A stretch of 64,000 nucleotides of DNA from an uncultured delta proteobacterium (lineage in GTDB: Bacteria; Myxococcota; Myxococcia; Myxococcales; Myxococcaceae), in contig CAVSWU010000003.1 of NCBI GenBank assembly GCA_963731795.1, forward strand, positions 1,094,216-1,158,215. Direction: 5' to 3'. The position numbers and the translations under genes were made by a program. Below the pieces are notes generated by a model. The model made no database searches and was not told the origin of the DNA. It saw nothing but the letters and a program-made list of their open reading frames with translations. Every line of letters begins with the position of its first letter. Position 1 is the stretch's first letter. Positions 1 to 43,171 of the stretch are shown here, one piece after another.

Positions 1-3000
1 CGGTGGCGTTGGCGGTCTGGCGCGCGGTCAGCTCCGAGGCTGGCAGGCGCACCATCTCCAGGGCCTCCCAGCCCTCACCCTCGGCCAGCCGCTGCAGCAG
101 CTCGCGGTAGGCCTGGAACATCGCGTCCACCAGGCCCGCGGGGAAGATCGCCACGAGCACGTCCCAGTGGAAGCGAAGCCCGCCGCGCGCCTCGCTGGCC
201 TGGTGATCGATCCAGACGTGGGGCGTCTCCAAGCGGGTGTGGACGGGGTGTCCCAGGAGCTGGGACTCGTCATTCGCCTGCGCATCCTCATACAGCGTGC
301 TGGCGAAGACGAAGGGCATGGCCGACGCGGCGCCCGTGCCCTGGGACAGGGCCAGCTCGCGGAGGACCTGGGTGCCGCTCACCTGGGTGTGCTCCAGATC
401 GCTCCACAGCCGCGCCTGCACCCGGCGAGCGCGCTGCGCGAAGGTGTCCCTCGGCCGGCAGTCCACCTCGAGCAGGAGGGTGGTGCTGAAGTTGCCGACC
501 ACCTCTCCGAGCCGCGGATGCAGGGGTGGCCGGTTCTGGTACAGGAGGTTGAGGGTGAAGTGGGGCGTCTGGCTCCACGCAGCCAGCACCTCAGCGTACG
601 CGGCCGCCAGCACGGCGGTGGGCGTGAGCCCCGCGCGCGTGCCGCGAGCCTTGAGGCGCTGCCATGCCTCCGCATCCACCTCGGCAGCCCACCGCTGGAA
701 GCCGCGCTCTCGCAGGGCCACCGGGGCGCTCACCTGCGGAAGCAGCGGAGCGGGTGGCAGCGTCGGCAGGCGGTCTCGCCAGTACGCCAGCGCCTTCTGG
801 TACCCCTCGTCCGCCTCGCGCGCGGCCTCCAGGTAGCGGACGTAATCCCGGTACGTCACCTCCAACGCCCCGAGGTCCGCGCCCGGATCCCGGTAGAACC
901 GCTCCAGGTCGCGGTTGATGACACGGAAGCTCTGAAGATCTCCCATCAGTAGCGGGAAGGCGAGGTGCAGCCGGTACCGCCGCTGATCGAGCCGGTGCCC
1001 CCGGAGCGTGAAGAGCGGCCAGGTATCCGGCCGCGGGTTGGCGCGAGACACGGCCGCTCGCGCCTCCTCGATGCGGCGCTCCACCTCGGCCTCGGGCAGC
1101 CCGCGCAGATCGACGACCTCCAGCTCGAACGCCGGGACCTTCGCGAGCACCTGCTGCTGTCCATCCGCGCGGACGATGCTCCGCAACGTGGCATGCCGCT
1201 CGATGACCCGCTGGAACGCGGCGTTGAAGCGCGCGACATCCAGGTCGAGCGTCTCGGCCTCGATGTAGCCCACGGCCGTCGCGCTGCTGCGCTCGAAGAG
1301 GCCCGTCTGCCCCAGCCAGTACGCCTGCTGCAGCTCCGTGAGCGCGAAGGGCTCTAGGCTGCGCTCGGGCTCGGGGATGAGCTGAACCCGCGTGGAACCC
1401 GAGCCCGCCGCTCCCCGCGCATGGGGCTGCTCCCGGGCGAGGAACTCGGCCTGCCGGGCGATGGTGGAGAGCTCGAACATGCGGGAGAGCGGCAGCTCGG
1501 TGCCAAACCGCTCTCGCAGGCGGATGATGAGCTTGACGGCCAGCAGCGAGTGTCCACCCAGCTCGAAGAAGTTGTCGTGGATGCCGACGCGCTTCACGCC
1601 GAGCAGCTCGGACCAGAGGGCCACCAGCGCGGTCTCGGTGTCGTTCCGAGGAGCCGCCACGAGCGCTGGGCGTTCCGCCTGAGCGCCCGGCTTGGGGAGC
1701 GCCCGGCGATCCGCCTTCCCGTTGGCGTTGAGAGGGAGCACCTCCAGCACCACCCACGTGGAGGGCACCATGTACTCGGGCAGCCGCTGGCGGAGGTACT
1801 CGCGGACCGCCTCTTCCGAGATGGCCGGGCCGGGCCGCGGGACGATGTAGCCCACCAGGTGCACGCTGCCCGAGGCATCCGGCGCCGCTGTCACCACCGC
1901 GTCGCGCAGCGCCTCGTGCCCGCGCAGGACGGATTCGATCTCACCCAGCTCGATGCGGATGCCGCGCACCTTCACCTGGTGGTCGGCGCGGCCCAGGAAC
2001 TCGATGTCACCGCTCGGCAGGTGGCGCGCCAGATCCCCGGTGCGGTACAGGCGCCCGGCGTCGTCCCCGGAGAACCGATCGCTCACGAAGGCGCTGGCGG
2101 TGCGCTGAGCGTCGTTGAGATAGCCCCGCCCCACGCCGACGCCGCCGACATACAGCTCGCCCACCACTCCCACGGGCACCGGCTCCATCCGGGAGTCGAG
2201 GACGTAGAGGCGCGCATTGGCGACGGGACGCCCGATGGGCAGGTGTGCCAGATCCTCGCGGGGCGGCGTGGTGATGGCGTAGTGCGCCACGTCATCCGAG
2301 CACTCGGAGCTGCCATAGGCGTTCAGCAGGGGAATGGCTGGGTAGAGCGCGAGCCACCGGCGGCAGAGGTCGGGCGGGAGCGCCTCGCCCGTGGGGACCA
2401 GCCAGCGCAGCGAAGGAAGGGCGGGCCGGGCCTGCCCTCGCGCCTCGGCATCATCCAGCATCAGGCGCATCACGGAGGGGACGATCTGCAGGACGGAGAT
2501 GCCATCCTCCGCCACCCGGTCGAGCAGGCGCCTTGAATCGCGCGCCACCGCGTCCTCCACCACGTCCACCTCGGCGCCCATGAGCAACGGCGCCAGGGTC
2601 TGCCAGATGCAAATGACGAAGGAAGGCGGAGCGGTCTGCGCCACCACGTCGCGTGCGGTGATGCCCAGATCCGTCGCCTTCGCGTAGAGGTGGTTGAGCA
2701 TGCCCCGGTGCTCGATCATTGCCCCCTTGGGCACCCCCGTGGACCCGGACGTGAAGACGACAAAGGCCAGGTTGCCGGGGGCCACACGCGCACGCTGCAC
2801 CCCGGTGCGAGCACGGATCGCGAGCAACTCCTCCACGCCCCAGAGCGCGGGACGCCCCTGCGCGGGCACCAGCGCCAGGGCCTGGGCGAGCGCGGCCCTC
2901 CGAGCCTGGGACACGAGGACACCCACGGCGCCCGCCTGCTCCAGGATCTGCGCCACGCGCTGGACGGGGTGGGAGGGCTCAATGAGCACGCACGCCCCAC

Positions 3001-4669: not shown

Positions 4670-4764
4670 GCCCACTCCTTAAAAGCTGCAAAAGCCTAAA
4701 TCCAAACCTTACCGTTCATAGTGGCCATTCACGCGGTTCATACCGGGACGAGGAGGGCGCCCCT

Positions 4765-9099: not shown

Positions 9100-9285
9100 A
9101 ACCGTATCCAGGGGTTCGGTGGATGAGAGTCAGGTACCACCAGCAGAGCCCGCAGCTTGATGTAAGCAGCTGAAGACTCTACTTCCGGGATGAACGGGCC
9201 TGAAGCCCCCCAAGCTGGAGTTTCCTCTTCAGAAACCCCACCGTGTTCGCCACGCTGAACTTCGGCAGGATGCTCACTTGAAGAG

Positions 9286-9335
9286 TGGAGGCGGCGGGAT
9301 TCGAACCCGCCGCTCGGAGCTTCTGGCGAGAACGC
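9286..9335 (-). other. tRNA 3'-end-like fragment (T-arm + acceptor 3' strand), probable att-site remnant
   Basis: Minus strand reads ...GCGGG-TTCGAAT-CCCGC-CGCCTCC-A (perfect 5-bp T-stem, canonical T-loop, 7-nt acceptor strand, discriminator A). No matching 5' acceptor strand GGAGGCG within 95 nt, so not a complete tRNA. Confidence 0.35.
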
Positions 9336-9516
9336 TCCGACTTGGTCGAGCGCAGTTCCCGTAGGACTTCCAGGCACGGCACTCCCAGGGCGGGCTTGGC
9401 GAAACTCTGTGGGTACCCATCGATAGCGTGTGCCCTGGCGAGGTGTGGCTGGGGAGGGGCTGGTGGGAACGCACGGGTGGGCGTACCGGCGAAGGCAGCC
9501 GGAGGGGACGGTGCTG

Positions 9517-10216
9517 TACGAGGCGGTGAGGGACAACCTGGCCACATTGCTGGCGGAGGCCAGCGAGGTAGGGCGCGGCCTGCCCCGGTACGTGGAGCGG
9601 GACTTCGCCAAGTACCTGGAATGCGGAGTGCTGGCGCACGGCTTCGCGCGGGTGAGCTACGAGAGTTGCAAGGACGAGCTGCTCGTCGCCTTCTCGTGCA
9701 AGGGCCGAGGGGTGTGCCCGTCCTGCAACGCGAAGCGGGCGCATGTGACGGCAGTGCATCTGGTGGAGCAGGTGCTACCGCATGTGCCCTACCGGCAGTG
9801 GACGCTGTCCTTTCCGCACCGGGTCCGGTGGGTGCTGCTCAAGGATGTGGGGCTACTCTCGGACGTCCTCTCCCTCTTCCTGCGCGCGGTGTTCGCCTTG
9901 CAGCGGCGGAGGGCACGGCGGCAGGGCCTACGTGGCGGCCAGGTCGGGGCCGTGTCGTTCATCCAGTTCTTCGGCTCCGCCTTGCAGGTGACTCCTCATT
10001 TCCACTCGCTGGTGCCGGACGGCGTCTTCGTGCCGTGGGAGGGCGGCGTGCGCTTCGAGGCGTTGCCGCCGCCCACGCAAGCAGAGGTGGAGAAGTTGCT
10101 GAAGGTGGTGCGGCACCGGGTGCTGCGGCTGTTGGAGAAAAGAGGAGCCCTGCCCGCGCAAGGACCCGAGGACGCGCTGCAGGCGTACCAGGCGCATTCC
10201 CTGCAACAGCGACTGC
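9517..10216 (+). mobile_element. IS91-family (HUH/Y2 rolling-circle) transposase gene, truncated relic (copy 1)
   Basis: ORF 9430..10605 contains the N-terminal Zn-binding region and HUH motif of IS91-type transposases ([52 protein letters not shown]...PYRQWTLSFPHRVR...SFIQFFGSALQVTPHFHSLVPDGVF). Homology ends near aa 262; catalytic Tyr region and C-terminus missing. Confidence 0.75.
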
Positions 10217-10788
10217 GCTGGACGGAGGTGGATCAAAGTCCTCCACTCAGCGCTATGGCGAATTGGAGCTCGCTCCCAGCCGCGACACAGTCTTCAACTG
10301 CGTCGACCTCGCCCTCCACGCTTACGACTTCAGATAGCGGAGAACTTTTCACTCATGAGTTACTTTTGTTAGGCGCTCTTACTCTTGTCCGCACGGGAGG
10401 CGGCACCCAGCTTCCAGGAATGAGGCTTCGCGCCAAGGAGGCAGCGGACGAGGGGCACATCCATTTGCTGCTCCCGCGCATCTCGTGGCGTTGGGTAGAG
10501 GTGGACGACGTGCGCGCCCAAGTGCTTGCAGCCGGAGAGGGGCCAGTTCACCCATGCCTTGCTCGCGTTCGCGGGCTCCGGCCGAAGGAGCGGAGAAGAG
10601 TGTGAGAGAGCAGAATCAGCAGACGCGTCGGAGTTGGGTGGTGTCGAATCGTGCCTGAAAGGAATAACTCATCTGGATCCACGTCGGCGTACCGGGTTCC
10701 TCCGGGCGCTGAGCCGCCCGGAGGCGTGAGAGCCCCTGAGCCAACGAACGTCAGGGGCGCTCGCACCAGAGCGGTGGTCTCATCCCGA

Positions 10789-12360
10789 CTACTGCTGCAC
10801 CTCGAGCGGCGTATACAGCTGTGGCGTCGGGAAAGTCTCCTGAGCGCAAGAGGTCCCTTCGTCAACGATCGAGTTGCAGTTGTTGTCCTTCCCGTCGCAT
10901 ACCTCGGCGGCTCCGGGATGCACACTGGGGTCCGTATCGTCGCAGTCGTTGGACGTGGCTCCGTAACCCGGGGGCGGAGTGCAGCCCCAGGGGGCGGGGC
11001 TGATGGCCCAAATGTCGCCGTACCCGTCCCCATCAAAATCCTGAGAGAAAGCGCGAGGCAGCGTGGCGTCCGCATCGTTGCAGTCGCTGGAGTCAGACAC
11101 GTAGCCAGCCGGCGCGGAGCAGGCTTGGATGCTCTCCGCGGCATTGCCGCGCCCGTCCCCATCCGCGTCACGGTAGTAAGTGGTATCTCCCCCCACCCCC
11201 TCGTCGATGGAGCCATTGCAGTTGTCATCCACTCCATTGCACGCCTCGGCAGCCCCGGGCTTCACGCTGGCGTTGGAATCGTTGCAGTCGCTGGAATTGG
11301 ACACGTAGCCCGCTGGCGCCGAGCACGCCTGGGTGCTCACCGCCGCATTGCCGTACCCGTCCCCATCCGCGTCACGGTAGTAGGTGTTCAGGGGCCCTCC
11401 CTCACCCGACGGTCCGTCACAGTCGTTGTCGTGGCCACCGCAGCTCCCGCCGATGTCGCGGTCACTCAGCGCGTTGATGTGGCCCTCCGCGTTGCCTGTC
11501 AGTGATCGGGCATAGATTCCGCCGTCCCAACTGCCATTGCTGAAGTGGATATGAGCCTGGGGGGCCAATAACGTACCCCAGAAGCCAAAGCCGTCGGCGT
11601 TGATGCTCGTCGCCTCCGGAAAGTTGTAGAGCACGCCGTGCTGGTCGATGCCGCCGCTAAACGAGTGGCCGAAGCCCGTGAAAGTGGCTGTGCTGCCGGA
11701 GATGTTCACTACGGCCAGAGAACCCGCTGGCGCGTCGATAGACAGCAGCTTGGCGCCGGTGAAGGAGTTGGCGTTCACCTGGAAGACGTTCACGTCTGGA
11801 GCTGTGCCGCGCAGCATGACACCGCCCCAGGGCTCAACGGTCGTCATGCCGTTGACCGCCAGACCGGCCAGCCGGGAGGACAGGCCGCGCAACTCAGCAA
11901 ACCGGGCTGCAAAGTCGATAGGTGTCCCGTGCGCCGCGGTGCCTCGAGGGAAGACCACGGATGGATCGGTGGTGTAATCGCCCCCGTACCAGGCATCTCC
12001 CCAGACGCCGCCGCGAGAGAGCGTCAAGTGGCCACCCGCCACCAACACCTGGGCCGTGTTGCTGTCCGGCACACCCGCCCCCACCGCAAAGTCAGTCAGG
12101 GTGATGTTGCCGCCCGCCGCCACCTTGCCTTGTACGTCATGTCCCTGGCTGTAGTCCTCGAGCAAGAACAGGTTGTGGCCACTCAGGCGGATCTGAATGC
12201 ACGCCAGGAGTGGCGGGGAGGTGGGGGAAGTCTCAATCAGCTTCCCGGCGGCAGCGCGATCACCCGCTTCGTCTTCGTGGACAAAACCGCAGGCCCCTAC
12301 AAGCGCCCCCAGAAGCAACCAAGACAGATGAACGCGGACGACTCTCCAAGCGCCTCTCAT
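10789..12360 (-). CDS. Secreted lipoprotein with choice-of-anchor-A-like N-domain and three MopE-type Cys-rich putative metal-binding repeats
   Basis: Start ATG at 12360 (RBS GGGGGA); signal plus lipobox LLGALVGAC. Repeats YYRDADGDGYGNAA.S.QACSAPAGYVS.SSDCND...PGAAE.C.G.D.NCN match the PF11617-like consensus (CDDxD..V.PGA.E.CDG.DNDC). Confidence 0.8.
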   Translation of the reverse strand: MRGAWRVVRVHLSWLLLGALVGACGFVHEDEAGDRAAAGKLIETSPTSPPLLACIQIRLSGHNLFLLEDYSQGHDVQGKVAAGGNITLTDFAVGAGVPDSNTAQVLVAGGHLTLSRGGVWGDAWYGGDYTTDPSVVFPRGTAAHGTPIDFAARFAELRGLSSRLAGLAVNGMTTVEPWGGVMLRGTAPDVNVFQVNANSFTGAKLLSIDAPAGSLAVVNISGSTATFTGFGHSFSGGIDQHGVLYNFPEATSINADGFGFWGTLLAPQAHIHFSNGSWDGGIYARSLTGNAEGHINALSDRDIGGSCGGHDNDCDGPSGEGGPLNTYYRDADGDGYGNAAVSTQACSAPAGYVSNSSDCNDSNASVKPGAAEACNGVDDNCNGSIDEGVGGDTTYYRDADGDGRGNAAESIQACSAPAGYVSDSSDCNDADATLPRAFSQDFDGDGYGDIWAISPAPWGCTPPPGYGATSNDCDDTDPSVHPGAAEVCDGKDNNCNSIVDEGTSCAQETFPTPQLYTPLEVQQ

Positions 12361-12447
12361 ATGGATCCCCCTGCTGTGGCAGTCTATTTCAGACCTATCA
12401 CGCTTGCCTTCTTCAGATCCATCTCGACTTCGAACTGATCCAGCGGC

Positions 12448-13072
12448 TTGTACCCAACGCGCCCAGCGGGCGTGAAGATGTACGTCGTTGTGAGGCGCCC
12501 ACAGCAGTACGAGGCGGTGAGGGACAACCTCGCTACGCTGCTGGCGGAGGCCGGAGTAGGGGGTGTTGGCGCACGGGTTCGCGCGGGTGCAGTGCGAGAG
12601 TTGCAAGGACGAGCTTCTGGTGGCCTTCTCGTCTGTGACGGCAGTGCACCGGGTGGAGCAGGTGCTGCCGCAGGTGCCCTACCGGCAGTGGACGCTGTCG
12701 TTTCCTCACCGGGTGCGGTGGGTGCTGCTGAAGGAGGCGGGAGTGCTCTCGCAGGTGCTCACCCTCTTCCTGCGCGCGGTGTTCGCCCTGCTCCCCCAAG
12801 CAGGTGCGGAGGAGGCGAGCGCGGGGAAGGAGGCAGCGGCCAGAACAGAGCGGATGAAGCAGGGGACGCCACGAGTGGACTGGGCCGAGTTGCTCAGCAG
12901 GACGTTCGACTTCGACGTGTTCGCCTGCGTGAGGTGTGGAGGCAGGCGCCGGGTGTTGGCGTACGTGAAGGGAGCACGAGGGGTGCGGGCGATTCTGAAG
13001 CACCTGGGCCTGCCCACGGCAGGTGCGAGGCTGGCCCCGGCGCGAGGGCCACCCCAGGCAGCGTGGTGTTGA
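12448..13072 (+). mobile_element. IS91-family transposase gene, internally deleted/frameshifted relic (copy 2)
   Basis: Frame 1 (12448..) has [16 protein letters not shown] (N-term). Frame 2 (12563..13072) has [22 protein letters not shown]...VPYRQWTLSFPHRVRWVLLKE... then the typical IS91 C-terminus VDWAELLSRTFDFDVFACVRCGGRRRVLAYV...ILKHLGLPT; central HUH/Tyr catalytic region is deleted. Same orientation as copy 1. Confidence 0.7.
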
Positions 13073-13316
13073 AGCTCAAGCCAACAAGGCCAAGAGAGCC
13101 AAGCGCCTGCCGCGCACCTGAAGGCAGGGCGGCCAGGGCCAGCGTGTACCCCAAGAGGCTGCGCGGCTTCTCCACCCGCTTGGCTCACTGCTCGGGCGGC
13201 CCCCGTCAGCGCTCCTCCTCGGCACCTCCGCTCCAGCCCTCACCTTCCACATGGCCTCTATCCCGCCTATACGCTTCCACCTGCAGAGCAGCGTCTTGCG
13301 CACGTCGTTTCCGTCT

Positions 13317-13360
13317 CCGGTTTGGTCCTTTTTTGGTCCCCAAAAACCGGATTTGGTCCC
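13317..13360. repeat. Low-GC hairpin / triple TTTGGTCC repeat
   Basis: CCGGTTTGGTCCTTTTTTGGTCCCCAAAAACCGG (stem CCGGTTT/AAACCGG) with TTTGGTCC occurring three times; sits between the IS91 relic 3' end and the convergent activator gene. Confidence 0.4.
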
Positions 13361-13423
13361 GAGACGCAGGCGTCGCCCCAGTTCTCAGAGGGCGGCGCCT
13401 TGAAAGCGGCGGGTTCCTCGGCT

Positions 13424-17339: not shown

Positions 17340-18134
17340 ATGGGACGTAAGCTCTTCTGCATGTTCATAGCGGGGGTGTGGACCGCGGTCCTCTTCCCGC
17401 TCACCCTCGTGACTACGCTGGTGCTCGGCGGGGATTCCACGGTGTGGATCTGCCGCCACCTGTGGTCCCCCGTGCTGCTGTGGGCCGGCGGAGCCCAGAT
17501 GGTGATTCACGGCCAGGAGAACGTGGACCCCAAGCGCCCCACCATCTACGTGGCCAACCACCAGTCCACCCTGGACATCCCCGCGCTCTTCGTCGCCGTG
17601 CCGGCCAACTTCCGCTACGTGGCCAAGAGCCAGCTCAAGTGGGTGCCGTTCATCGGCTGGTACCTCTGGTTCGCCGGGCACATCTTCGTCAACCGCTCCA
17701 ACCGGCAGGCGGCCATCAGCTCGCTGCAGGCGGCGGGGCGGAAGATCCGCGGTGGCACCAGCATCTTCCTCTACCCGGAGGGCACTCGCTCGCCGGAGGG
17801 GCGCATCCTCCCCTTCAAGAAGGGGCCCTTCGCCCTGGCCCTCGAGGCCCGCGTGCCCATCTGCCCGGTCACCATCGAGGGCACTCGGAAGATCATGCCC
17901 AAGAACTCCTGGAACATCGTCCCAGGCCCCGTGCACGTAAAGATCGGCAAGCCCATCGACACCTCGGGCTTCGCCGCGGAGGACCGCGAGGGGCTCGCCC
18001 GCGCCATCCGCGAGATGATCATCCAGCAGAACGTGGAGCTCGGCGGCCTGGGCGGAGACGTCGAAGACGCCATCGCCGCCGCGGGTTACGAAGGCATCGG
18101 TCACGCGTCCCCTCCCGCCCGGAAAATCTCCTGA
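17340..18134 (+). CDS. plsC: 1-acyl-sn-glycerol-3-phosphate acyltransferase
   Basis: LPLAT motifs NHQSTLD (block I), FIFVNR, LYPEGTRS (block III), VPICPVTIEG. Confidence 0.9.
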   Translation: MGRKLFCMFIAGVWTAVLFPLTLVTTLVLGGDSTVWICRHLWSPVLLWAGGAQMVIHGQENVDPKRPTIYVANHQSTLDIPALFVAVPANFRYVAKSQLKWVPFIGWYLWFAGHIFVNRSNRQAAISSLQAAGRKIRGGTSIFLYPEGTRSPEGRILPFKKGPFALALEARVPICPVTIEGTRKIMPKNSWNIVPGPVHVKIGKPIDTSGFAAEDREGLARAIREMIIQQNVELGGLGGDVEDAIAAAGYEGIGHASPPARKIS

Positions 18135-18136
18135 CC

Positions 18137-19525
18137 TTGAACGTGAAGCTCCCTACCCTCCACTCCTCCCTGCTCCGCCGCCAGGCCTTGGCCACCGTGC
18201 TCGGCTTCAGCCTGCTCACGGGCTGCAGCCACGGCAATTCGATGGAGCGCGTGCTCAGCCCTCGCGAGCAGGCCCGCGTCTACCTGGAAGAGAACCAGCC
18301 CGCCAAAGCCCTGCCCTTGCTGGAGGAGCTGCAGGCCAAGAGCCCGGATGATCTCGACATCGCCCGGGCCCTCACCGAGGTCCAGGTGAAGGCCGGCCAC
18401 ACGGATGCCTGGATCGCGGAGCTCCAGCGCCGCAACACCCAGTCCGAGCGAGCAGTGAACCACTACATGCTCGGCCTGGCCTACTTCTCCCGGGCCTCGG
18501 ACGCCGGAGCACCCGCGGTGGCCGCCTTCGAGCGCGCCATCGCCATGGCCCCCCGCGAGGCCGAGTTCCACTACCGCCTCGGCATCGCCTACCTGGAGTC
18601 CGAGCAGTACGCCGCCGCCCTGGGCCCGCTGCGCCGCGCCGCCGAGCTGGCTCCGGATCGCGCCGCCATCCGGCTCCCGCTGGCCAAGGCGCTGCACCGC
18701 ACCGGCGACAGCGTGGGCGCCGTGGCCTCGCTGAACACCGTCGTCCGAGCCTCTCCCACTCCGGCCGAAGTGGCGACGGCGCGGGCGTTGATGGACCAGA
18801 TCGCGGACCCGTTCTCCGGCTTCCCGAAGGCGGCCCAGGGCAAGCTCGAGGAGGGCATGCGCTTCCTCCAGGAGATGGACGCTCCGCAGCAGGCCATCCT
18901 CGCCTTCGAGGAGATCCTCCACGACTACCCGGACCTGGCCGTGGTGCACGCGCTGCTGGGGCTGGCCTACGAGCGGCTGGATGACGCGGGCCGGGCCGTG
19001 GACGAGTTCAAGCAGGCCATCGAGCTGGCTCCCCGGGACGGCAAGAACCAGTTCTACCTGGGCGAGCTGTACCTCTCGCGCCAGCGCGCGGACGCGGCCC
19101 GCGAGGCCTTCACCAAGGCCGTGGCCTTCAACCCGCTGCTGGACGACGCCTGGTCCCGGCTCGGAGACTTGAGCCTGGATCGGCGGGATCTCCCGGCCGC
19201 CCGCGAGGCGTTCCGCATCTTCACCTCGCTGCAGCCGGACGTGGCGCCCCCTCGGGGCAAGCTGGCCATGGTGTACCAGCTGGAGGGCGACTTCCCGGCG
19301 GCCGAGCGTGAGCTGCGGCGTGTGGTCGAAAAAGACCCGGAGAACATGGAGTTCGCCTTGCGCCTGGGGCTGCTCTTCACCGAGGAGTCCCTGAAGGCCC
19401 GGAAGCCGGAGGAGCGCAAGGCCTCGAGCCAGGAGGCGGAGAAGTGGCTCCTCAAGGTCCTCGAGGAGCAGCCGGACAACGCCCTGGCCTCGAGGGCGCT
19501 GCAACAGATCAAGGCTCAGGAGTAG
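18137..19525 (+). CDS. TPR-repeat lipoprotein
   Basis: Signal with lipobox LLTGCS; multiple TPR units (HYMLGLAYF, FHYRLGIAYLESEQYAAA, HALLGLAYERLDDAGRA, YLGELYLSRQRADAA). Start TTG 18137 or GTG 18143; the 17378 ATG gives an out-of-frame overlap with plsC. Confidence 0.8.
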   Translation: MNVKLPTLHSSLLRRQALATVLGFSLLTGCSHGNSMERVLSPREQARVYLEENQPAKALPLLEELQAKSPDDLDIARALTEVQVKAGHTDAWIAELQRRNTQSERAVNHYMLGLAYFSRASDAGAPAVAAFERAIAMAPREAEFHYRLGIAYLESEQYAAALGPLRRAAELAPDRAAIRLPLAKALHRTGDSVGAVASLNTVVRASPTPAEVATARALMDQIADPFSGFPKAAQGKLEEGMRFLQEMDAPQQAILAFEEILHDYPDLAVVHALLGLAYERLDDAGRAVDEFKQAIELAPRDGKNQFYLGELYLSRQRADAAREAFTKAVAFNPLLDDAWSRLGDLSLDRRDLPAAREAFRIFTSLQPDVAPPRGKLAMVYQLEGDFPAAERELRRVVEKDPENMEFALRLGLLFTEESLKARKPEERKASSQEAEKWLLKVLEEQPDNALASRALQQIKAQE

Positions 19526-20339: not shown

Positions 20340-20753
20340 CTACTCGCTCTTCTCCTCGGTCTTCTCCTCGCCACCCTCGGCGGGAGCGGCCTTCGCGGGG
20401 CGATCCACCAGCTCCAGCAGCGCCATCTCGGCGGCGTCGCCGCGGCGGAAGCCGAGCTTGACGATCCGGGTGTAGCCACCGTTGCGGCTGGCGTAGCGCT
20501 CCTTGTACTGGCTGAACACCTTCTGGAGGACGTCCTTGTCCTTCACGATGCGAGCCGCGAGCCGGACATTGGCCAGACCGCCGCGCTTGCCGAGGGTGAT
20601 GATCCGCTCCGCCATCTTCCGGGCCTCCTTGGCCTTGGGGACGGTGGTGCGGATGGCCTCGTGCTCCAGCAGCGAGGTGACCATGTTGTTGAGCATCGCG
20701 AGCCGGTGGCTCGTGGTGCGGTGGAGCTTCCTCTGTCCAATCCTATGACGCAT
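20340..20753 (-). CDS. rplQ: 50S ribosomal protein L17
   Basis: Full-length L17 similarity ([23 protein letters not shown]..). Confidence 0.95.
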
Positions 20754-29959: not shown

Positions 29960-30370
29960 CTAGTAGACGGTGCAGAGCAGCTCGCCGCCGATGTTCTGCT
30001 TGCGCGCCTCGCCGTCCGACATGATGCCCTTGGACGTGGACAGCACGGCGATGCCCATGCCGCCGAGCACGCGGGGAATGTCACGCACCGCCACGTAGCG
30101 GCGCAGGCCCGGCTTGGACACGCGCTTGATGCCGGTGATGGCGGAGCTCCGGTCCTGCCCGTACTTCAGCTGGACGGTGATCTCGCTCTGCGGAGCGCGC
30201 TCGTGGACGGTGAACTCGCCGATGTAGCCCTCATCCTTGAGGACGCGAGCGATCTCGACCTTGAGCTTCGAGTGGGGAATGACGACCTTGTCGTGCCGCG
30301 CACGCGAGGCGTTGCGCAGGCGGGTCAGCATATCGCCGACAGGATCATTGACCGGCTTCATGGGTGACAA
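29960..30370 (-). CDS. rpsH: 30S ribosomal protein S8
   Basis: Full-length S8 ([13 protein letters not shown]...). Confidence 0.95.
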
Positions 30371-30529
30371 CCTTCCGTGCGGGAGCCTCCTGGGCTTCCC
30401 GCGCTTTCGACCGCCGCGCCTGCCGGGCCCATCCCGGGGGTTCGCCGCGTTCGCACAACTCTGGGGCTTCGGCGCTTCAGCCGCGCCAGGAGGCCCCGGG
30501 CCACTCAGGCCCCGGGCACCCTCTTCCGG

Positions 30530-30715
30530 CTACCAGGACGACTTGGTGACGCCGGTGATCTCACCGCGCAGCGCGCGCAGGCGCAGGCAGATACGGCACA
30601 TCTGGAACTTGCGAAGGAACGCGCGCGGCCGGCCGCACAGCGGGCAGCGGTTGTACTTGCGCACGGAGAACTTCGGCTTGCGCTTCGCCTGGGCGATCTT
30701 GGAGAGCTTGGCCAT
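30530..30715 (-). CDS. rpsZ: 30S ribosomal protein S14 type Z (Zn-ribbon form)
   Basis: 61 aa with CPLCGR...CRIC. Confidence 0.95.
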
Positions 30716-30736
30716 GGAGCTTGGATTCCTCGGGAG

Positions 30737-31402
30737 TTACTGGCGGAACGGCATGCCGAAGTGACGCATCAGCGCCAGCCCCTGCTCGTCGTTCTTCGCG
30801 GTGGTGACGAAGCTGATGTTGAGCCCCTTCACCTTCTCGATCTGGTCGTAGTTGATTTCCGGGAAGATGATCTGCTCGCGGATGCCGAGCGTGTAGTTGC
30901 CCTTCCCGTCGAACGCCTTGGGGGACACGCCCTTGAAGTCACGCACGCGCGGCAGCGCCACGGAGATGAGGCGGTCCAGGAACTCGTACATCCGGTCGCC
31001 GCGCAGCGTGACGGCGCAGCCGATGGCCTGGCCCTGGCGCAGCTTGAAGTTCGCGATCGACTTGCGAGCGCGCGTGACGACCGGCTTCTGGCCGGTGATG
31101 GCGCCCAGCTGGTCCACCGCCGACTCCAGGATCTTGTTGTTGGCGAGCGCCTCGCCCAGACCCATGTTGACGACGATCTTCTCGAGCCGCGGCACCTGGA
31201 AGGGGTTCTTCAGGCCCAGCTCCTTCATCAGGGCGGGCACTCCCTCCTTGCGGTAGCGCAGCTTCAGCCGCGCCGGCTTCGCCTCGAGGCCCTCCTCGAT
31301 GTTGGCCGCAAAGCCAGCCTTCTTGACGTCTTCCTTCTTGCGGCCCTTCTTTTCCTTCTTTTCCTTCTTCTCTGCCTGCTCGGGCTTCTTCTCATCAGCC
31401 AT
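30737..31402 (-). CDS. rplE: 50S ribosomal protein L5 (Lys/Glu-rich N-terminal extension)
   Basis: L5 core preceded by [28 protein letters not shown]. Confidence 0.95.
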
Positions 31403-31576
31403 TGTGTCAGTCCTCTGCTTCGGAGCGCCGTCGTGGACCCAGCGGCCCCGATCAGTACGTCTGGAATCTCAAAAACACCGAGAGGGCCCCGCTACTTCAG
31501 GCCCTCTGTATGCATGCCTGCTCGCCCCTGGCCTCGGGTGGCCAAAGGGCGCGCATACATGCCCGAACCCGCCTTC

Positions 31577-31906
31577 CTAGTCAATCAGGGCGTCGCAGTT
31601 CTTGCAGAACCGCTTCTGGGTCTCGCCCTCGGCCCGGATACCCACCCGGGTCGGCTTGTCGCACTTGCCGCACACCACTTGGACGTCCGAGAGAGCGATG
31701 GTGCCCGCCTTCTCGATGATGCCGCCCTCGGGGTTCTGCGCCGTCTTGCGGAGGTGGCGCTTGACCATCCGCAGCCCCTCCACCGTGACGCGCCCGGCCT
31801 CGCGGTCAATCTTCAGCACCTTGCCGCGCTTGCTCGCCGGCGTCTTCTCCGAGCGCTCGGCGCCTGAGATGACCTGCACGGTGTCTCCAACCTTCAGCTT
31901 CTGCAT
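31577..31906 (-). CDS. rplX: 50S ribosomal protein L24 with C-terminal C4 zinc-ribbon-like extension
   Basis: KOW region MQKLKVGDTVQVISG... then CGKCDKP...CKNC. Confidence 0.95.
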   Translation of the reverse strand: MQKLKVGDTVQVISGAERSEKTPASKRGKVLKIDREAGRVTVEGLRMVKRHLRKTAQNPEGGIIEKAGTIALSDVQVVCGKCDKPTRVGIRAEGETQKRFCKNCDALID

Positions 31907-31947
31907 GGCTTCCTCTCTGGCTGCTCGCCGGCAGGCCTGGTGTCCTC

Positions 31948-32316
31948 TTAGAGGACCTCGGGCGCGAGCGAGATGATCTTCATGAACTTGCGGGCGCGGA
32001 GCTCGCGGGCAACCGGCCCGAAGATGCGCGTGCCAATGGGCTCCATGTCCTTGTTGATGAGGACGGCGGAGTTGCCATCGAACTTGATGTAGCTGCCGTC
32101 CGCCCGGCCCACCTCGTGCCTGGTGCGGACGATGACGGCCTTGGCCACGTCGCCCTTCTTCACCTTCGAGTTGGGCAGCGCCTCGCGGATCGACACGACG
32201 ATCACGTCGCCGATGGACGCATACTTGCGCTTCGAGCCGCCGAGCACCTTGATGCAGAACACCTTCTTGGCGCCCGAGTTGTCGGCCACGTCGAGCACGC
32301 TCGTCATCTGAATCAT
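31948..32316 (-). CDS. rplN: 50S ribosomal protein L14
   Basis: Full-length L14. Confidence 0.95.
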
Positions 32317-32415
32317 CTGGAAGTCTCCTCTAAGGTCCTACGGCAGCCCCTACCCGGCGAGGGGCGGGACCGCGCGGCTCGAGCCGCCCGCGCCCAAGGG
32401 TGCGGGCCACGTGGC

Positions 32416-32733
32416 TCAGACGTTCTTGCTCTTCTCGATCACCTCGACCACCCGCCACCGCTTGTCCTTCGAGGCCGGCCGCGTCTCGGCGATGCGCACG
32501 CGGTCACCCTCGTTGATGGTGATCTTCTTCGGGTAGTCGTGGTCCTCGACGTGCGCCTTGTACTTCTCGCGCATGCTCATGATCTTGCCGTACTTGGCGT
32601 GCGGCGCGCGGCGCTGGACGGTGACGATCACCGTCTTCTGCATCTTGTTCGAGGTGACAATCCCCACGCGCGTCTTGGGACGGCCGCGGGAGGAGCTCTC
32701 GGGAGCGGAGGTGGTCTGGGTCTCTTCAGCCAT
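32416..32733 (-). CDS. rpsQ: 30S ribosomal protein S17
   Basis: Full-length S17 with N-terminal extension. Confidence 0.95.
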
Positions 32734-32809
32734 CGTGAATCTCGCCTGTCAGTCAGTGTTCCCGGGACGTCCCGGTGAGGGTGCCCCTGGTCCAGGGGCA
32801 CGCCGGAAG

Positions 32810-33013
32810 CTACTTCTTCTCCGCCCGCTTCTTCTCCGTCATCACGGTGAGGACACGGGCCAGGTCACGGCGGTGCTGGGTGCGCTGCGAGGGGCTGTCC
32901 AGATTGCCCGTCCGCATGCTCAGCTGGTCCTGGAACAGCGTGCCGCGCAGTTCATCCGCGCGCCGCTGCAGGTCCTCCACCGACAACTCCTTCAGTTCCT
33001 TCGCAGTCGCCAT
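32810..33013 (-). CDS. rpmC: 50S ribosomal protein L29
   Basis: Full-length L29. Confidence 0.95.
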   Translation of the reverse strand: MATAKELKELSVEDLQRRADELRGTLFQDQLSMRTGNLDSPSQRTQHRRDLARVLTVMTEKKRAEKK

Positions 33014-33035
33014 CTTCAGTCTCCAGGCCGGGCAG

Positions 33036-33455
33036 CTAGATCGACAGCTGGCCGCGGTTCACGATCTTGGTGAGGACAGGCAGCTTCGCCTGCGCGAGCT
33101 TGAGCGCAGCGGTGGCCACGTCGGCCGTCATGCCCTCCATCTCGTAGAGGATGCGGCCCGGCTTCACCACGGCCACGTAGTACTCCACGCCACCCTTACC
33201 GGTACCCATACGGGTCTCGGCGGGCTTCTTCGTGATGGGCTTGTCCGGGAAGATCCGGATCCAGATCTTACCGCCGCGCTTCACGTGGCGGGTCATCGCG
33301 ATACGGGCCGCCTCGATCTGGCGCGAGGTGATCCACCCCGGCTGCAGGGACATGAGGCCGTACTCACCATAGGTGAGATCGCTGCCGCGGTAGGCCTTAC
33401 CGGGGGTGCGGCCCTTGTGCATCTTGCGATACTTGGTACGAGCAGGCTGAAGCAT
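33036..33455 (-). CDS. rplP: 50S ribosomal protein L16
   Basis: Full-length L16. Confidence 0.95.
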
Positions 33456-33510
33456 CGTCGGTGTCCTTCATCCCCGCAGGGGCACCCGTGGGCGCCCCGG
33501 GGAGCTCAAG

Positions 33511-34173
<663 letters not shown>

Positions 34174-34206
34174 CGTGCTTCTCCTTAAAGTTGAAGGCCC
34201 GGAGGG

Positions 34207-34551
34207 CTACTTCTTGGCCTCGGCGAGCACCACGTGAACGTGGGCGCTCTTCTTGTTGATTCGCGTCGCGCGGCCCATGGCGCGCGGCATGTACCGGCGC
34301 TGGGTGGGGGCCTGGTCCACGGAGATGGTCTTCACGTAGAGCGTGTCCACGTCGACCTGGCCCTTGGACTTGTCGGTGGCGTTGGCCACGGCGCTCTTGA
34401 TGAGCTTGCCGAGCGGAGCCGCCGCAGCGCGGGGGGTGAACTTGAGGATGTTGAGGGCAGCCTCGACGGGCTTGCCTCGGACGAGCGCAGCCACCGTGGA
34501 CAGCTTCCGGGGCGACATGCGGACGTAGCGCAGATGTGCAGTGGACTCCAT
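34207..34551 (-). CDS. rplV: 50S ribosomal protein L22
   Basis: Start MESTAHLRYVRMSP (second Met of the listed ORF). Confidence 0.9.
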   Translation of the reverse strand: MESTAHLRYVRMSPRKLSTVAALVRGKPVEAALNILKFTPRAAAAPLGKLIKSAVANATDKSKGQVDVDTLYVKTISVDQAPTQRRYMPRAMGRATRINKKSAHVHVVLAEAKK

Positions 34552-34575
34552 CGTCATCTCCTAGAGCGGTCCGGA

Positions 34576-34863
34576 CTACTTACCGGGGGCCTTGGCGACC
34601 TTCTTCTCGGCCGAGTGCCCACCGAAGGTCCGCGTCGGCGCGAACTCGCCGAGCTTGTGACCCACCATGTTCTCCGTGACGAACACCGGGACGAACTTCT
34701 TCCCGTTGTGCACCGCGAAGGTGTGTCCGACGAACTCCGGCAGGATGGTGGAGCGCCGCGACCACGTCTTCACGACCTTCTTCTGGTTCGTCTTGATCAT
34801 GTCCTCCACCTTCTTGAGGAGATGATCGTCGACGAACGGTCCCTTCTTGATCGAACGAGCCAT
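34576..34863 (-). CDS. rpsS: 30S ribosomal protein S19
   Basis: Full-length S19. Confidence 0.95.
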
Positions 34864-34885
34864 TTCGGAATCCTTGGGCTACGAG

Positions 34886-35731
34886 CTACTGGCTGCGCGG
34901 TCCCTGCCGGCGCTTGCTCACGATGAACTTGTCGGTCCGCTTGTTGGTGCGCGTGGTGAGACCCTTGGTCTTCTGGCCCCACGGCGACACCGGGTGCGGG
35001 TTACCCTGGCCGGACTTACCCTCACCACCACCGTGCGGGTGGTCGACAGGGTTCATGGCCAGACCGCGGACGGTGGGCCGGATGCCCAGCCAGCGGCTCT
35101 TACCCGCCTTACCGATGCGGATGATCTCATGCTCGATGTTGCCGAGCTGGCCCACGGTGGCCCGGCACTCGATGAGCACCTTGCGCACCGCGCCCGAGGG
35201 CAGGCGGATCTGGGCGTAGCGGTCCTCCTTGGCCATCAGCTGACCGGAGGTGCCGGCCGAGCGGATGATCTGGGCGCCGCGGCCCGGCTTCAGCTCCACG
35301 TTGTGGATGACCGTACCCACCGGGATGTTCAGCAGCGGCAGGCAGTTGCCCGGCCGGATGTCCGAGTTCGGACCGGCGAACAGGGTGTCACCCACCGCCA
35401 GGCCCACGGGGGCCAGGATGTAGCGCTTCTCGCCGTCCGCGTAGTGCAGCAGCGCGATGTTGGCGGTGCGGTTCGGGTCGTACTCCACGGAAGCGACCTT
35501 GGCCGGCACGCCATCCTTGTCCCGGCGCTTGAAGTCGATGACGCGGTAGCGGCGCTTGTGGCCACCGCCCTGGTGACGCCGGGTGATGTGGCCGTGAACG
35601 TTGCGGCCGCCCGAGCGCTTCAGCGGAGCGGTGAGCTTCTTCTCCGGCGTGTCCTTGGTGATGTCCGCGAAGTCGGACACCGTCATCAGGCGACGGGCTG
35701 CTGAGGTCGGCTTGTACTTCTTGATGCCCAT
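34886..35731 (-). CDS. rplB: 50S ribosomal protein L2
   Basis: Full-length L2. Confidence 0.95.
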
Positions 35732-35768
35732 GGTGATTATCCTCGATCAGGCGGTCAGCGCGGTGCGC

Positions 35769-36062
35769 CTAGGCCGTCGTTCCCTCGAAGAGCTCGATCT
35801 TGTCGCCCTCCTTGAGGGTGACGACGGCCTTCTTGTAGTTGGGGCGCTGGCCGATGCTCTTGCCCACGCGCTTGACCTTGCCGCGGACGATGTTGGTGCG
35901 CACGCCCTCGACGGTGACCTTGAACAGGTTCTCCACCGCGCGAGCCACATCCACCTTGGTCGCCTTCTTGTCGACGATGAAGGAGTACTGGCGGAACTTC
36001 TCGCGGGCCTGGTCCAGCTTCTCGGTGATGAGCGGACCCTTGATGACGTCGTGGATCTTCAT
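35769..36062 (-). CDS. rplW: 50S ribosomal protein L23
   Basis: Full-length L23. Confidence 0.95.
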
Positions 36063-36682
36063 GACAGGGCCTCCTGGATGGCCTTGGCGGCCGCGGAGGT
36101 CAGCACGAGCTGCTTGTGGCGCAGCACGGACTCGAGGTTGAGCCCCTCGGGCGGCAGCACGTCGAACTGAGCCAGGTTGCGCACGCTGCGGTGCAGGTTG
36201 GTGTTGCCCTTCTCGTCGATGACGAGGGCGTTCTCCAGCTTCAGGCGCTTGGTGAGCACGTCGAAGGCCTGCTTGCTCTTCGCGGCGTCCAGCTTGAAGC
36301 CGTCGAGGATCACCAGGGCGTTCTCCTTGGCGCGCAGGGACAGCGCCGCGCGGAGCGCGCCGCGACGAACCTGGCGGGGAGGACGGTAGGTGTAGTCCCG
36401 GGCCTTGGGAGCCATGGCCTTACCACCGCCCACCCAGTGGGAGGCGCGGATGGAGCCCTGACGAGCGCGGCCAGTGCCCTTCTGCTTCCAGGGCTTCTTG
36501 CCACCACCGCTCACCAGCGAGGTGTTCTTCACACCCACGGTGCCGCGGCGCCGGTTGATCTGCTGCATCTTCGCCACCTCGTAGAGGAGGTGGGGGTTCG
36601 GCTCGGCGCCGAACACCTCGTCGGAGAGTTCGATCTCCGACACCTGCTTGCCATCCAGGTCGATTACCTTGAACTTCGCCAT
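36059..36682 (-). CDS. rplD: 50S ribosomal protein L4
   Basis: L4 signature [22 protein letters not shown]; follows rpsJ with only a ~50-nt spacer, with no rplC. Confidence 0.95.
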
Positions 36683-36732
36683 GACATTTCCTCGGGGGTC
36701 GGAGTGGAACTGCGCCAGTCCTCACCCGCGTC

Positions 36733-37041
36733 CTAGGACTTGATCTCCACGTCAACGCCAGCCGACAGATCCAGCTTCATCAGCGCATCCAGCGTCTGCT
36801 GGGTGGGCTCGAGGATGTCGAGCAAGCGCTTGTGCGTGCGGATCTCGAACTGCTCGCGGCTCTTCTTGTCCACGTGCGGCGACCGCAGAACCGTGAACTT
36901 GTTGATGCGCGTGGGCAGGGGGATCGGACCGGCCACCTTGGCGCCCGTGCGCTTGGCCGTCTCAACAATCTCCCCGGCGCTCTGGTCCAGGAGCTTCGAG
37001 TCGTACGCCTTCAGCCGGATGCGAATCTTCGTTGTCGCCAT
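36733..37041 (-). CDS. rpsJ: 30S ribosomal protein S10
   Basis: Full-length S10. Confidence 0.95.
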
Positions 37042-37224
37042 TTCGAAAAAACCTCTTAGACGGCCCCGCTGTTGGAGGCGTTACGACCGACGTCCCCTGG
37101 ATGTCACAGAGCCGTGCTTCAGACGAGGGGCGCGGCATTTACCACCCCACCCCTCTGGTTGCAACTCTATTCCGACACCACCCCGGCGAGCCACTGTCTG
37201 GCCGCCGGGGTGCAGTCAGCCAAA

Positions 37225-38415
<1,191 letters not shown>

Positions 38416-38541
38416 GACTTCTCCTGGTGGGGGCCAGCCCGGTGGCCGGCATTTTTCGGCAAAACGAAGGTGCTGCGTCCTGCTCCAATGTGACTGAAAG
38501 ATCAACAGAAATCGGCAGGGTGGGCACCCTGCGGGCAGCCG

Positions 38542-40617
<2,076 letters not shown>

Positions 40618-40755
40618 GGCCCAATACCCTTCTTCGAATCGGGAGCCTGGTTGCTCCCTCTCCCTGATTCACGACCACCCAAACGGATTGTCAGAGAACT
40701 GCAACACCCGGATACGCCAGGCGCATCCGGGTGTCAGACCGCGAGGCCGTCAGGC

Positions 40756-41226
40756 CTACCAGCGGTAGTGCGCGAAGGCCTTGTTCGCCTCCGCCATCTT
40801 GTGCGTGTCCTCGCGCTTCTTCACGGCGTTGCCGCGGTTGTTGGCGGCATCCATGATCTCGCCGGCGAGCTTCTCCTGCATGGTCTTCTCACCACGCGCC
40901 TTGGCGTAGGAGATGATCCAGCGCATGCCGAGCGCCACGCGGCGGTCCTGACGGACCTCGACGGGGACCTGGTAGGTGGCGCCACCGACGCGGCGGCTCT
41001 TCACCTCGAGGACGGGCTTGACGTTGTCCAGGGCCTTCTTGAACGTCTTCAGGGGCTCTTCCTTCGCCCGCTCCTCGATGAGGGCAAAGGCGCCGTAGCA
41101 CACGCCCTCGGCGATGGACTTGTTGCCCTTGCGCATCAGGTCGTTGACGAACTTGGTGACGAGCCGATCCTGATACTTCGGATCAGGCAGGATCTTCCGC
41201 TTCGCTACTACGCGACGACGAGGCAT
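40756..41226 (-). CDS. rpsG: 30S ribosomal protein S7
   Basis: Full-length S7. Confidence 0.95.
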
Positions 41227-41367
41227 CTCTTCTTCCCTTACGCCCCACCCCCGCTAGGCGGGAGCCAACAGGGGCTTCATGAACTGCACGGAACAACGAA
41301 ACAAGGCGCGCTCCCCAGGGTGTGGGGCGAGCGTCCTGATCCGACTTCTGGAGGTGATCGAACCGCT

Positions 41368-41739
41368 TCAGCTCGGGCGCTTGGCGCCGTACTTGGAGCG
41401 GCTCTGCTTGCGGCCCGCCACGCCCACGGAGTCCAGCGTGCCACGGATGATGTGGTAGCGGACGCCCGGGAGATCCTTCACGCGGCCTCCGCGGATCATC
41501 ACCACGGAGTGCTCCTGGAGGTTGTGACCCACGCCCGGGATGTACGAGGTGACTTCAATCCCGTTGGTGAGGCGCACGCGCGCCACCTTGCGAAGGGCCG
41601 AGTTCGGCTTCTTCGGCGTGGTGGTGTACACGCGGGTGCAGACACCACGCTTCTGAGGGCTCTCCTTCAGAGCGGGGCTCTTCCCCTTGAAAACCATCTT
41701 CTCGCGGCCCTTGCGGACCAGCTGGCTGATCGTCGGCAC
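41368..41739 (-). CDS. rpsL: 30S ribosomal protein S12
   Basis: Full-length S12 ([14 protein letters not shown]..). Confidence 0.95.
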
Positions 41740-41823
41740 TGACGCTTCCTTCTCTCATGGCCCCCAGCGCTGGACACGTGGCGGCACATATAGACCTACA
41801 ACTACGCTAGAAAAAGGGCCGCG

Positions 41824-41851
41824 AGTATAGGGAGGGACCTTCCCGTGTCAA
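41824..41851 (-). promoter_or_regulatory. Near-consensus sigma-70-type promoter of the rpsL (str) operon
   Basis: Minus strand reads TTGACA-16 nt-TATACT about 85 nt upstream of the rpsL ATG, inside a locally low-GC stretch (41790-41850). Confidence 0.5.
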
Positions 41852-41906
41852 GCACCGCTTGACCCTCGGAGGGTAGAAACCGTCCGGCGGGAGGGGATCC
41901 ATTCCT

Positions 41907-41929
41907 GAAACGCGCAGTTTGCGCGCTCC
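41907..41929 (-). terminator. Hairpin downstream of rimI (possible terminator/insulator before the rpsL promoter)
   Basis: GAAACGCGCAGTTTGCGCGCTCC: 6-bp GC stem CGCGCA/TGCGCG with loop AAC; no strong U-tract. Confidence 0.3.
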
Positions 41930-41945
41930 TCTACCCCTCGTGCGA

Positions 41946-42380
41946 CTAGAAGTCGAGCACCATGACGAGCGCGTCCTCTTTCTCGTCCACGTAGTAGTTC
42001 GGCCGCACCCCCACCGAGCGGAAGCCCAGGGACTTGTAGAGGCCAATGGCCGCCTCGTTGCTCTGGCGGACCTCCAGGGTGGCCAGGACGCAGTGGCGGT
42101 ACTGGCCCCGAGCGAGCACCTCGTCCATCAGCACCCGCCCTACCCCGCGGCGGCGGTGCTCGGGCGCCACCGCGACGTTGAGCACGTGGACCTCGTCCTG
42201 GACGATCCAGAAGATGGCCAGGCCCAGCAGGAGCCGGCCCCCTGCTGGCTGCGGCTCCTCGACCAGCAGGATCGTGGACCAGTCGTGATCCAGCTCGCGC
42301 CGCAGCAGCTCGGGCGACCAGGGGTTGCGGAAGGCCGCCTTCTCCAGCGCGATCACCGCCGGCATGTCCTCGTGGGTCAT
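41946..42380 (-). CDS. rimI: Ribosomal-protein-alanine N-acetyltransferase (GNAT)
   Basis: GNAT motifs (LAVAPEHRRRGVGRVLM, YKSLGF); start at MTHEDMPAVIALE. Confidence 0.85.
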   Translation of the reverse strand: MTHEDMPAVIALEKAAFRNPWSPELLRRELDHDWSTILLVEEPQPAGGRLLLGLAIFWIVQDEVHVLNVAVAPEHRRRGVGRVLMDEVLARGQYRHCVLATLEVRQSNEAAIGLYKSLGFRSVGVRPNYYVDEKEDALVMVLDF

Positions 42381-42436
42381 CTGCCGGATCAGGAACGGGT
42401 GCTTGCCCTGCCGCGGAGCTTCCTCGCGCATCTGCC

Positions 42437-43171
42437 TCATCGCCGCGCCTCCCTGGCGAAGGGAGCCACCCGCCTCACCTGCGCGGAGGCTCGAAGTTGG
42501 GCCAGATCCTCCGCGGTGAGCAGATCGTAGCGCTCCTTCTTCAGCTTGTTCTGGAGCTGGACCTTCACCGCCGTGTAGCCCTCCGGGTACTCGCTGGCGT
42601 GCTGCTGGTAGTAGCGCAGCGTCTCCGCCTCGCTTACCTGGACTCGCGGGCGAATGCGACTGTCCAGGATGCGCTCGGCCCGCACGCGCCGGCCCAGCAC
42701 CTCCGTGAGCAGCTTCAGATCCGCCCCCGAGCGCGCCAGGAAGGCTTGGAAGGCCTCCTCGCTGTCGAAGAGCTGGCGGAACTTCGCCAGCCGGGCCTCC
42801 ACGTCCGCCTGCTCCGTGGGGGATGCCTCCTGCCGATCCGCGCTCAGCACCTGCAGCCGCAGGTTGATGGCCAGCTCGAGCCCCACCTTGAGTGCCTCCT
42901 CATCGAGCGGCTCCACGGCCGCCTGCAAAGCTCCCTGCTGGACGAACGCCACGCGCGTCTCGAACTCCAGCTCGCTCCGGGTGAGGACCTGGCCCTCGAT
43001 GACCGCCACCACCTGGTCGATGATGCGCCCCTCGGACGCCTCGGAGGCCGCCGTGGGCACACCGCTCTCTGGCGCCTGGGCCATCGCGGCGGCAGGCACT
43101 ACCATGAGCCAGCCCGCCCACCCGAGGATGATCGCTCGACGGGGGCGCGGCGATGCCAGGGCCACCTTCAT
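42437..43171 (-). CDS. Periplasmic chaperone, SurA N-terminal-domain protein
   Basis: Signal peptide [31 protein letters not shown] then SurA_N-like region ([19 protein letters not shown]...). Confidence 0.7.

Follow-up and report, generated by a model that had tools for sequence, protein, structure and literature searches.

The S10 operon of a myxobacterial genome and its relatives passes from rpsJ directly to rplD, with no rplC between them

In Escherichia coli, the S10 operon runs rpsJ-rplC-rplD-rplW-rplB-rpsS-rplV-rpsC-rplP-rpmC-rpsQ and is autoregulated by L4 at the S10 leader. The S10-L3-L4 succession at its head is among the most conserved gene neighborhoods of bacteria; hence, a gap at this point looks like an error or a deletion. 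An S10 operon lacking rplC is already known in substance, having been visible for years in the public annotation of Myxococcus xanthus DK1622, where tuf (MXAN_3298), the S10 gene (MXAN_3299, 3854626-3854934) and the L4 gene (MXAN_3300, 3854988-3855611) follow one another with a spacer of 53 nt between the latter two. In the literature, we found no paper describing or commenting on a relocation of rplC in myxobacteria, and, as far as the searchable literature shows, this gene order has apparently not been described before as a phylum-wide marker.

Against this background, we analyzed a stretch of 64 kb, hereafter the window, in which the S10 operon has the spc and alpha clusters, ending with rplQ, on its downstream side and tuf and the genes of the str operon on its upstream side (Table 1). 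The S10, L4, L23, L2, EF-Tu, S7, S12 and L17 proteins each score above the curated cut-off of their NCBIfam equivalog models, and the order rplD-rplW-rplB-rpsS-rplV-rpsC-rplP-rpmC is kept, in agreement with the Pfam labels in relatives. The rpsJ-rplD junction is intact: rplD begins 50 nt past the rpsJ stop and has a ribosome-binding site of its own, with the Shine-Dalgarno sequence GAGGA lying inside the spacer, 7 nt ahead of the ATG. The positions that the initial annotation had given for rpsJ, rplD and the spacer with its ribosome-binding site are exact, and the L4 signature that it cited is present in the rplD product. What the window lacks of the canonical operon is rplC directly after rpsJ.

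Table 1. Features of the window around the rpsJ-rplD junction and at its low-coordinate end, in order of decreasing coordinate.
Feature	Position	Strand	Remarks
rpsL (S12)	41368-41739	minus	str operon, upstream; NCBIfam-confirmed
rpsG (S7)	40756-41226	minus	str operon, upstream; NCBIfam-confirmed
fusA	38542-40617	minus	str operon, upstream
Terminator-like hairpin, fusA-tuf intergenic	38515-38532	minus	GC-rich, with T-rich tail
tuf (EF-Tu)	37225-38415	minus	396 aa; upstream of rpsJ; NCBIfam TIGR00485, 758.9 bits
tuf-rpsJ intergenic region	37042-37224	minus	183 nt
TTGCAA	37164-37159	minus	conserved in the tuf-rpsJ gap of Myxococcaceae
TGGTAAAT	37144-37137	minus	14 nt after TTGCAA; conserved in the tuf-rpsJ gap of Myxococcaceae
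Possible leader hairpin	within ~37136-37077	minus	GCCGCGCCCCT...GGCTCTGTGACATCCAGGGGACGTCGGTCGTAACGCC able to pair
rpsJ (30S ribosomal protein S10)	36733-37041	minus	102 aa; NCBIfam NF001861, 170.6 bits (cut-off 85); TIGR01049, 158.7 bits
rpsJ-rplD spacer	36683-36732	minus	50 nt; GACGCGGGTGAGGACTGGCGCAGTTCCACTCCGACCCCCGAGGAAATGTC; the rplC slot of most bacteria
rplD (50S ribosomal protein L4)	36059-36682	minus	207 aa; NCBIfam TIGR03953, 225.9 bits (cut-off 130.1)
rplW (L23)	35769-36062	minus	NCBIfam-confirmed
rplB (L2)	34886-35731	minus	NCBIfam-confirmed
rpsS	34576-34863	minus	
rplV	34207-34557	minus	
rpsC	33511-34173	minus	
rplP	33036-33455	minus	
rpmC	32810-33013	minus	
rplQ (L17)	20340-20753	minus	end of the spc and alpha clusters; NCBIfam-confirmed
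NRPS open reading frame	2-4678	minus	>1559 aa, running off the window start; Condensation, AMP-binding and PP-binding domains (NRPS module)

No L3 could be recovered from the window. A tblastn search of the whole 64 kb with the E. coli protein gave a best E value of 1.4, and a profile HMM of 57 L3 proteins out of the fetched loci found no match in the six-frame translation of the same 64 kb. With the HMMER filters off, the L3 bit scores over the region 36650-37260 were all negative, revealing no remnant or fragment of L3 there; no L3-like coding was detected by this means in the spacer or in the tuf-rpsJ gap. With these null searches, and with only 50 and 183 nt to accommodate a gene, the claim of the initial annotation that rplC is missing from its slot and has no room there holds.

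To place this junction among bacteria, the S10 protein of the window was searched against one genome per species, yielding 80 loci, to which three closed Myxococcus/Archangium loci were added; 81 of these 83 were informative. The order rpsJ-rplC-rplD occurs in 59 of the 81 and rpsJ followed directly by rplD in the other 22. All 59 informative loci of other phyla keep rplC, including every surveyed locus of Desulfobacterota, Acidobacteriota, Bdellovibrionota, Nitrospirota and further phyla. Likewise, metagenome contigs scanned with the L3 profile gave 80 L3 loci, with S10 upstream in 63 of the 64 that have at least 450 nt of upstream flank and L4 downstream in 64 of the 65 that have at least 500 nt of downstream flank. 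These counts bear out the expectation that bacteria nearly always encode L3 at this place, and the rplC-less order is unusual against bacteria at large. The only atypical contexts among these 80 random L3 loci are on two low-GC metagenome contigs, L153 (L3 at 317-916), with no L4 within 4 kb downstream, and L156 (L3 at 1790-2398), with no S10 within 1.8 kb upstream. Several metagenomic matches, among them P0121 (307 aa) and P0241 (334 aa, with two separate stretches matching the profile), are far longer than the usual 205-220 aa; they could be fusions, duplications or gene-calling errors.

Among the myxobacteria, the picture is different in kind from a local defect. The closest named relatives belong to Hyalangium, whose L4 proteins are 95-98% identical to that of the window, which bears out the affiliation to Myxococcales presumed in the initial annotation; in Hyalangium minutum (GCA_000737315.1, JMCB01000003), rpsJ and rplD are likewise separated by 50 nt with no rplC. 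The same holds, with spacers of 53 nt, for the closed genomes of Myxococcus (CP071091 and CP102770) and Archangium violaceum (CP069396), which measure 10-13 Mb, and the spacer sequence is partly conserved across Hyalangium, Myxococcus and Archangium. The initial annotation had cast the locus as an anomaly; this does not survive the comparison with its Myxococcales relatives, since these too are without rplC at the slot, and the arrangement is thus what is normal for the lineage, not a peculiarity of one locus. The 1.23-Mb H. minutum contig (JMCB01000003.1) starts inside tuf, which is consistent with two near-identical tuf copies having broken the draft assembly upstream of rpsJ.

In total, we gathered 26 loci without L3; in the 22 in which it was measured, the spacer is 2-251 nt long, and hence none has room for a gene of 630 nt. 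Every myxobacterial locus fetched passes from rpsJ to rplD. The specific taxon labels among the 22 L3-less loci are Myxococcaceae, Myxococcales, Kofleriaceae, Sandaracinaceae and Myxococcota, with no others; the remaining loci have MAG labels that are imprecise or evidently mistaken ('Deltaproteobacteria', 'Enterobacteriaceae' and the like). In a crude neighbor-joining tree of seven concatenated ribosomal proteins, from which one locus (L012) was left out for lack of data, the window and 18 of the 22 L3-less loci form a single clade with no L3-bearing locus inside it. Four L3-less loci (L053, L058, L060 and L076) fall outside this main myxobacterial clade in the same tree, and their similarity to Desulfuromonadales is about as high as that to myxobacteria. 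They may be deep branches of the myxobacteria or lineages whose operon lost rplC independently; two of the four bear the MAG labels 'Rickettsiales' and 'Pseudomonadota'. A profile search with non-Myxococcaceae L4 returned named matches exclusively from Myxococcota, Myxococcales, Polyangia, Polyangiaceae or 'Deltaproteobacteria' MAGs. Three more Myxococcota contigs, one of them 938 kb long, have S10 followed by L4 and no Ribosomal_L3 domain within 10 kb on either side.

Some of these contigs also depart from the usual order further upstream. Two Myxococcota metagenome contigs (L171 and L172, 6259-10624) have the order rpsL-rpsG-fusA-rpsJ-rplD, in which tuf as well as rplC is absent and fusA adjoins rpsJ. 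On the 938-kb contig (1-9619), the str-S10 linkage is broken: fusA is set apart from tuf-rpsJ by about 8 kb of genes unrelated to them, one of which encodes a Y1_Tnp transposase.

The tuf-rpsJ gap itself has a block, within 37077-37164 on the minus strand, that is kept across Hyalangium, Myxococcus, Archangium and two Myxococcaceae MAGs. Its TTGCAA and TGGTAAAT elements, 14 nt apart, are promoter-like; judging from the sequence, the block may comprise the promoter and 5' leader of the S10 operon. The possible leader hairpin within it has no covariation support, and a search of Rfam over 30000-43000 (E <= 1) matched no family, ribosomal-protein leaders included; conservation of the E. coli leader is not expected at this distance.

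If rplC is not in the operon, where is it? A direct answer comes from a single species, M. xanthus, for which the location of L3 is documented. In the supplement of a developmental transcriptome published in eLife in 2019 (PMC6791715), '50S ribosomal protein L3' is MXAN_3370 (MXAN_RS16315) at 3913660-3914304. By these coordinates, its start lies 58,725 nt past the rpsJ stop of strain DK1622 and 43.6 kb beyond rpoA, and its product is a normal L3 of 214 aa. The same source places the hypothetical gene MXAN_3368 (forward, 3912713-3913483) before it and, 324 nt after it, nfsA, the first gene of the forward-oriented nfsA-H sporulation operon. These neighbors and the wording of the nfs paper (PMC2875238) suggest that MXAN_3370 is on the same strand as rpsJ. 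That paper names Mxan_3370 merely as 'the upstream gene' of nfs, and its authors deduce a separate nfsA promoter from differing transcription patterns.

The seven-point expression series in the transcriptome supplement (PMC6791715) further illuminates the status of this gene. The L3 transcript follows those of L4 (Pearson r 0.95, mean ratio of L3 to the gene compared 0.94) and L2 (r 0.93, ratio 1.08) at roughly 1:1, and does not track its physical neighbors, nfsA (r 0.35, ratio 16.7) and MXAN_3368 (r 0.09, ratio 8.4). The ribosomal genes compared (L3, L4 and L2) were all placed by the authors in their developmental group 6. Thus, in these data the relocated L3 gene behaves as an expression unit of its own that is co-regulated with its former operon. 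Going by transcript levels, it probably has its own promoter and is part of the growth-linked regulon that includes the ribosomal operons.

Beyond M. xanthus, two Myxococcales phylogenies employ RplC as a universal marker, and it is present in all the genomes used there, which means that an L3 gene exists in those genomes. Given the essentiality of L3 and the state of the relatives, the L3 gene of the source genome most probably lies outside the window. Were the synteny of M. xanthus kept, it would be found ~22 kb beyond the low-coordinate end. However, that end of the window is occupied by an NRPS open reading frame, about 16 kb downstream of rplQ, and so the local gene order of M. xanthus is not kept; we know of no NRPS at the corresponding place downstream of rplQ in M. 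xanthus. Two other stretches of the window, ~9100-13400 and 18100-19500, show no convincing open reading frame under a crude third-position GC filter, unlike the rest; they may differ in composition or contain genes that this filter missed.

Attempts to retrieve a myxobacterial L3 from sequence collections yielded none. No L3 emerged from a profile scan of viral contigs, none of the 80 metagenomic L3 loci from the profile scan was of myxobacterial type, a tblastn search of plasmid records with L3 gave no myxobacterial record, and the best 120 matches of a protein search with the L3 profile included no Myxococcota names. From the best 150 of 3361 L3 cluster representatives (E <= 1e-30), candidates were picked by composition, length, low identity to S10-linked L3s and correlation of identity profiles. 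The four whose genomic context was examined all proved to be linked to S10 and were rejected, and the names in the candidate clusters were all from Verrucomicrobia, Gemmatimonadota and Acidobacteriota and hence not myxobacterial. The PDB had no myxobacterial ribosome, the best L4 match there being of the Staphylococcus type.

Taken together, we consider that rplC was truly relocated, that the resulting order is inherited and that L3 is encoded at another site, and assign this a probability of about 0.9, as opposed to a deletion or an assembly error. The initial annotation had left the choice between relocation, clean deletion and assembly collapse; of these, the first alone stands, as the junctions of the relatives exclude assembly collapse, and MXAN_3370 and the use of RplC as a marker exclude a loss of L3 for the clade. 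We envisage that rplC left the S10 operon in a myxobacterial ancestor no younger than the one shared by Myxococcia and Polyangia, and that it would now be transcribed as a unit of its own at another place on the chromosome, leaving rpsJ-rplD-rplW-rplB-rpsS-rplV-rpsC-rplP-rpmC as the order inherited in the lineage. We hold at even odds that rplC was excised just once, long ago, at the base of Myxococcota or below it, possibly in common with a few deep-branching 'delta-like' lineages. The four L3-less loci outside the main clade leave a single origin unproven.

The chief alternative is that the native gene never moved: a second L3 gene, which had arisen at another locus through horizontal transfer or a duplication, took over, and the copy in the operon was then deleted. 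Apparent relocation of ribosomal protein genes can indeed come about in this manner, through a second copy and the subsequent loss of the native one, and the leftover spacers, short, variable in length and free of any rplC remnant, fit a clean deletion. The lack of a myxobacterial L3 among the best 120 general-profile matches could further mean that the protein is atypical; however, with 3361 cluster representatives at E <= 1e-30, absence from the best 120 is weak evidence. We regard a replacement as unlikely. A collapse or misassembly that took rplC out of the contig is far less credible still. Duplicated tuf genes can break assemblies nearby, as the H. minutum contig that starts inside tuf would suggest, but the same junction recurs in independent closed genomes of relatives, which excludes an assembly collapse, as well as in many independent MAGs and metagenome contigs, and its spacer is conserved among the closest genera. 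Finally, the absence of any L3 signal in 64 kb might be taken to mean that L3 was truly lost, or is present in the window but too diverged or broken up to be recognized; this is scarcely credible for a universal and essential protein that is found in all Myxococcales genomes of the marker phylogenies, is encoded in M. xanthus by a normal gene for 214 aa expressed at the level of L4 according to the transcriptome supplement, and left no fragment at the junction detectable with the profile HMM at unfiltered settings.

By this analysis, an S10 operon without rplC is the normal state of a whole phylum. Annotators and quality-control pipelines that look for rplC behind rpsJ should therefore let myxobacterial assemblies pass on this account. 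The rpsJ-rplD junction could, in turn, offer a simple gene-order marker for uncultured 'deltaproteobacterial' genomes. If the excision was indeed a single event, it would be a clean gene-order marker for Myxococcota and would have freed the synthesis of L3 from whatever feedback governs the S10 operon. The system also presents a natural case for asking how a ribosomal protein gene that was moved 59 kb away is still expressed 1:1 with the genes of the operon it left. Nothing here is new in kind; a modest interest remains in the marker and in this instance of co-expression at a distance.

In terms of described systems, the window is closest to the S10 region of M. xanthus DK1622, with which it shares the order tuf-rpsJ-rplD-rplW-rplB, the absence of rplC, the conserved block in the tuf-rpsJ gap and, save for a difference of 3 nt (50 as against 53), the length of the spacer. 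The two are nonetheless of different genera, their L4 proteins being 84-85% identical, and they differ downstream of rplQ, where the window has other genes and the NRPS; no L3 occurs in the 36.7 kb downstream of rpsJ that the window covers. As a member of the myxobacterial rplC-less type, the window has the start of rplD within a few hundred nt of the rpsJ stop, at 50 nt, and its junction recurs in close relatives, including those with closed genomes. Like the canonical operon of E. coli, it opens with rpsJ, preceded by tuf and the str genes, and has the same succession from rplD to rpmC, with the spc and alpha clusters coming next. In the canonical operon, however, rplC is second, whereas in the window it is absent, and the synthesis of L3 cannot be coupled to the transcription or translation of the operon. 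A comparable lineage-wide break between S10 and L3 at the head of the cluster is seen in cyanobacteria and plastids, where rps10 is the last gene of the str operon (rps12-rps7-fusA-tufA-rps10) and rpl3 the first of the large cluster. There, S10 was parted from L3-L4; in the myxobacteria, by contrast, L3 alone was excised and S10 stays joined to L4.
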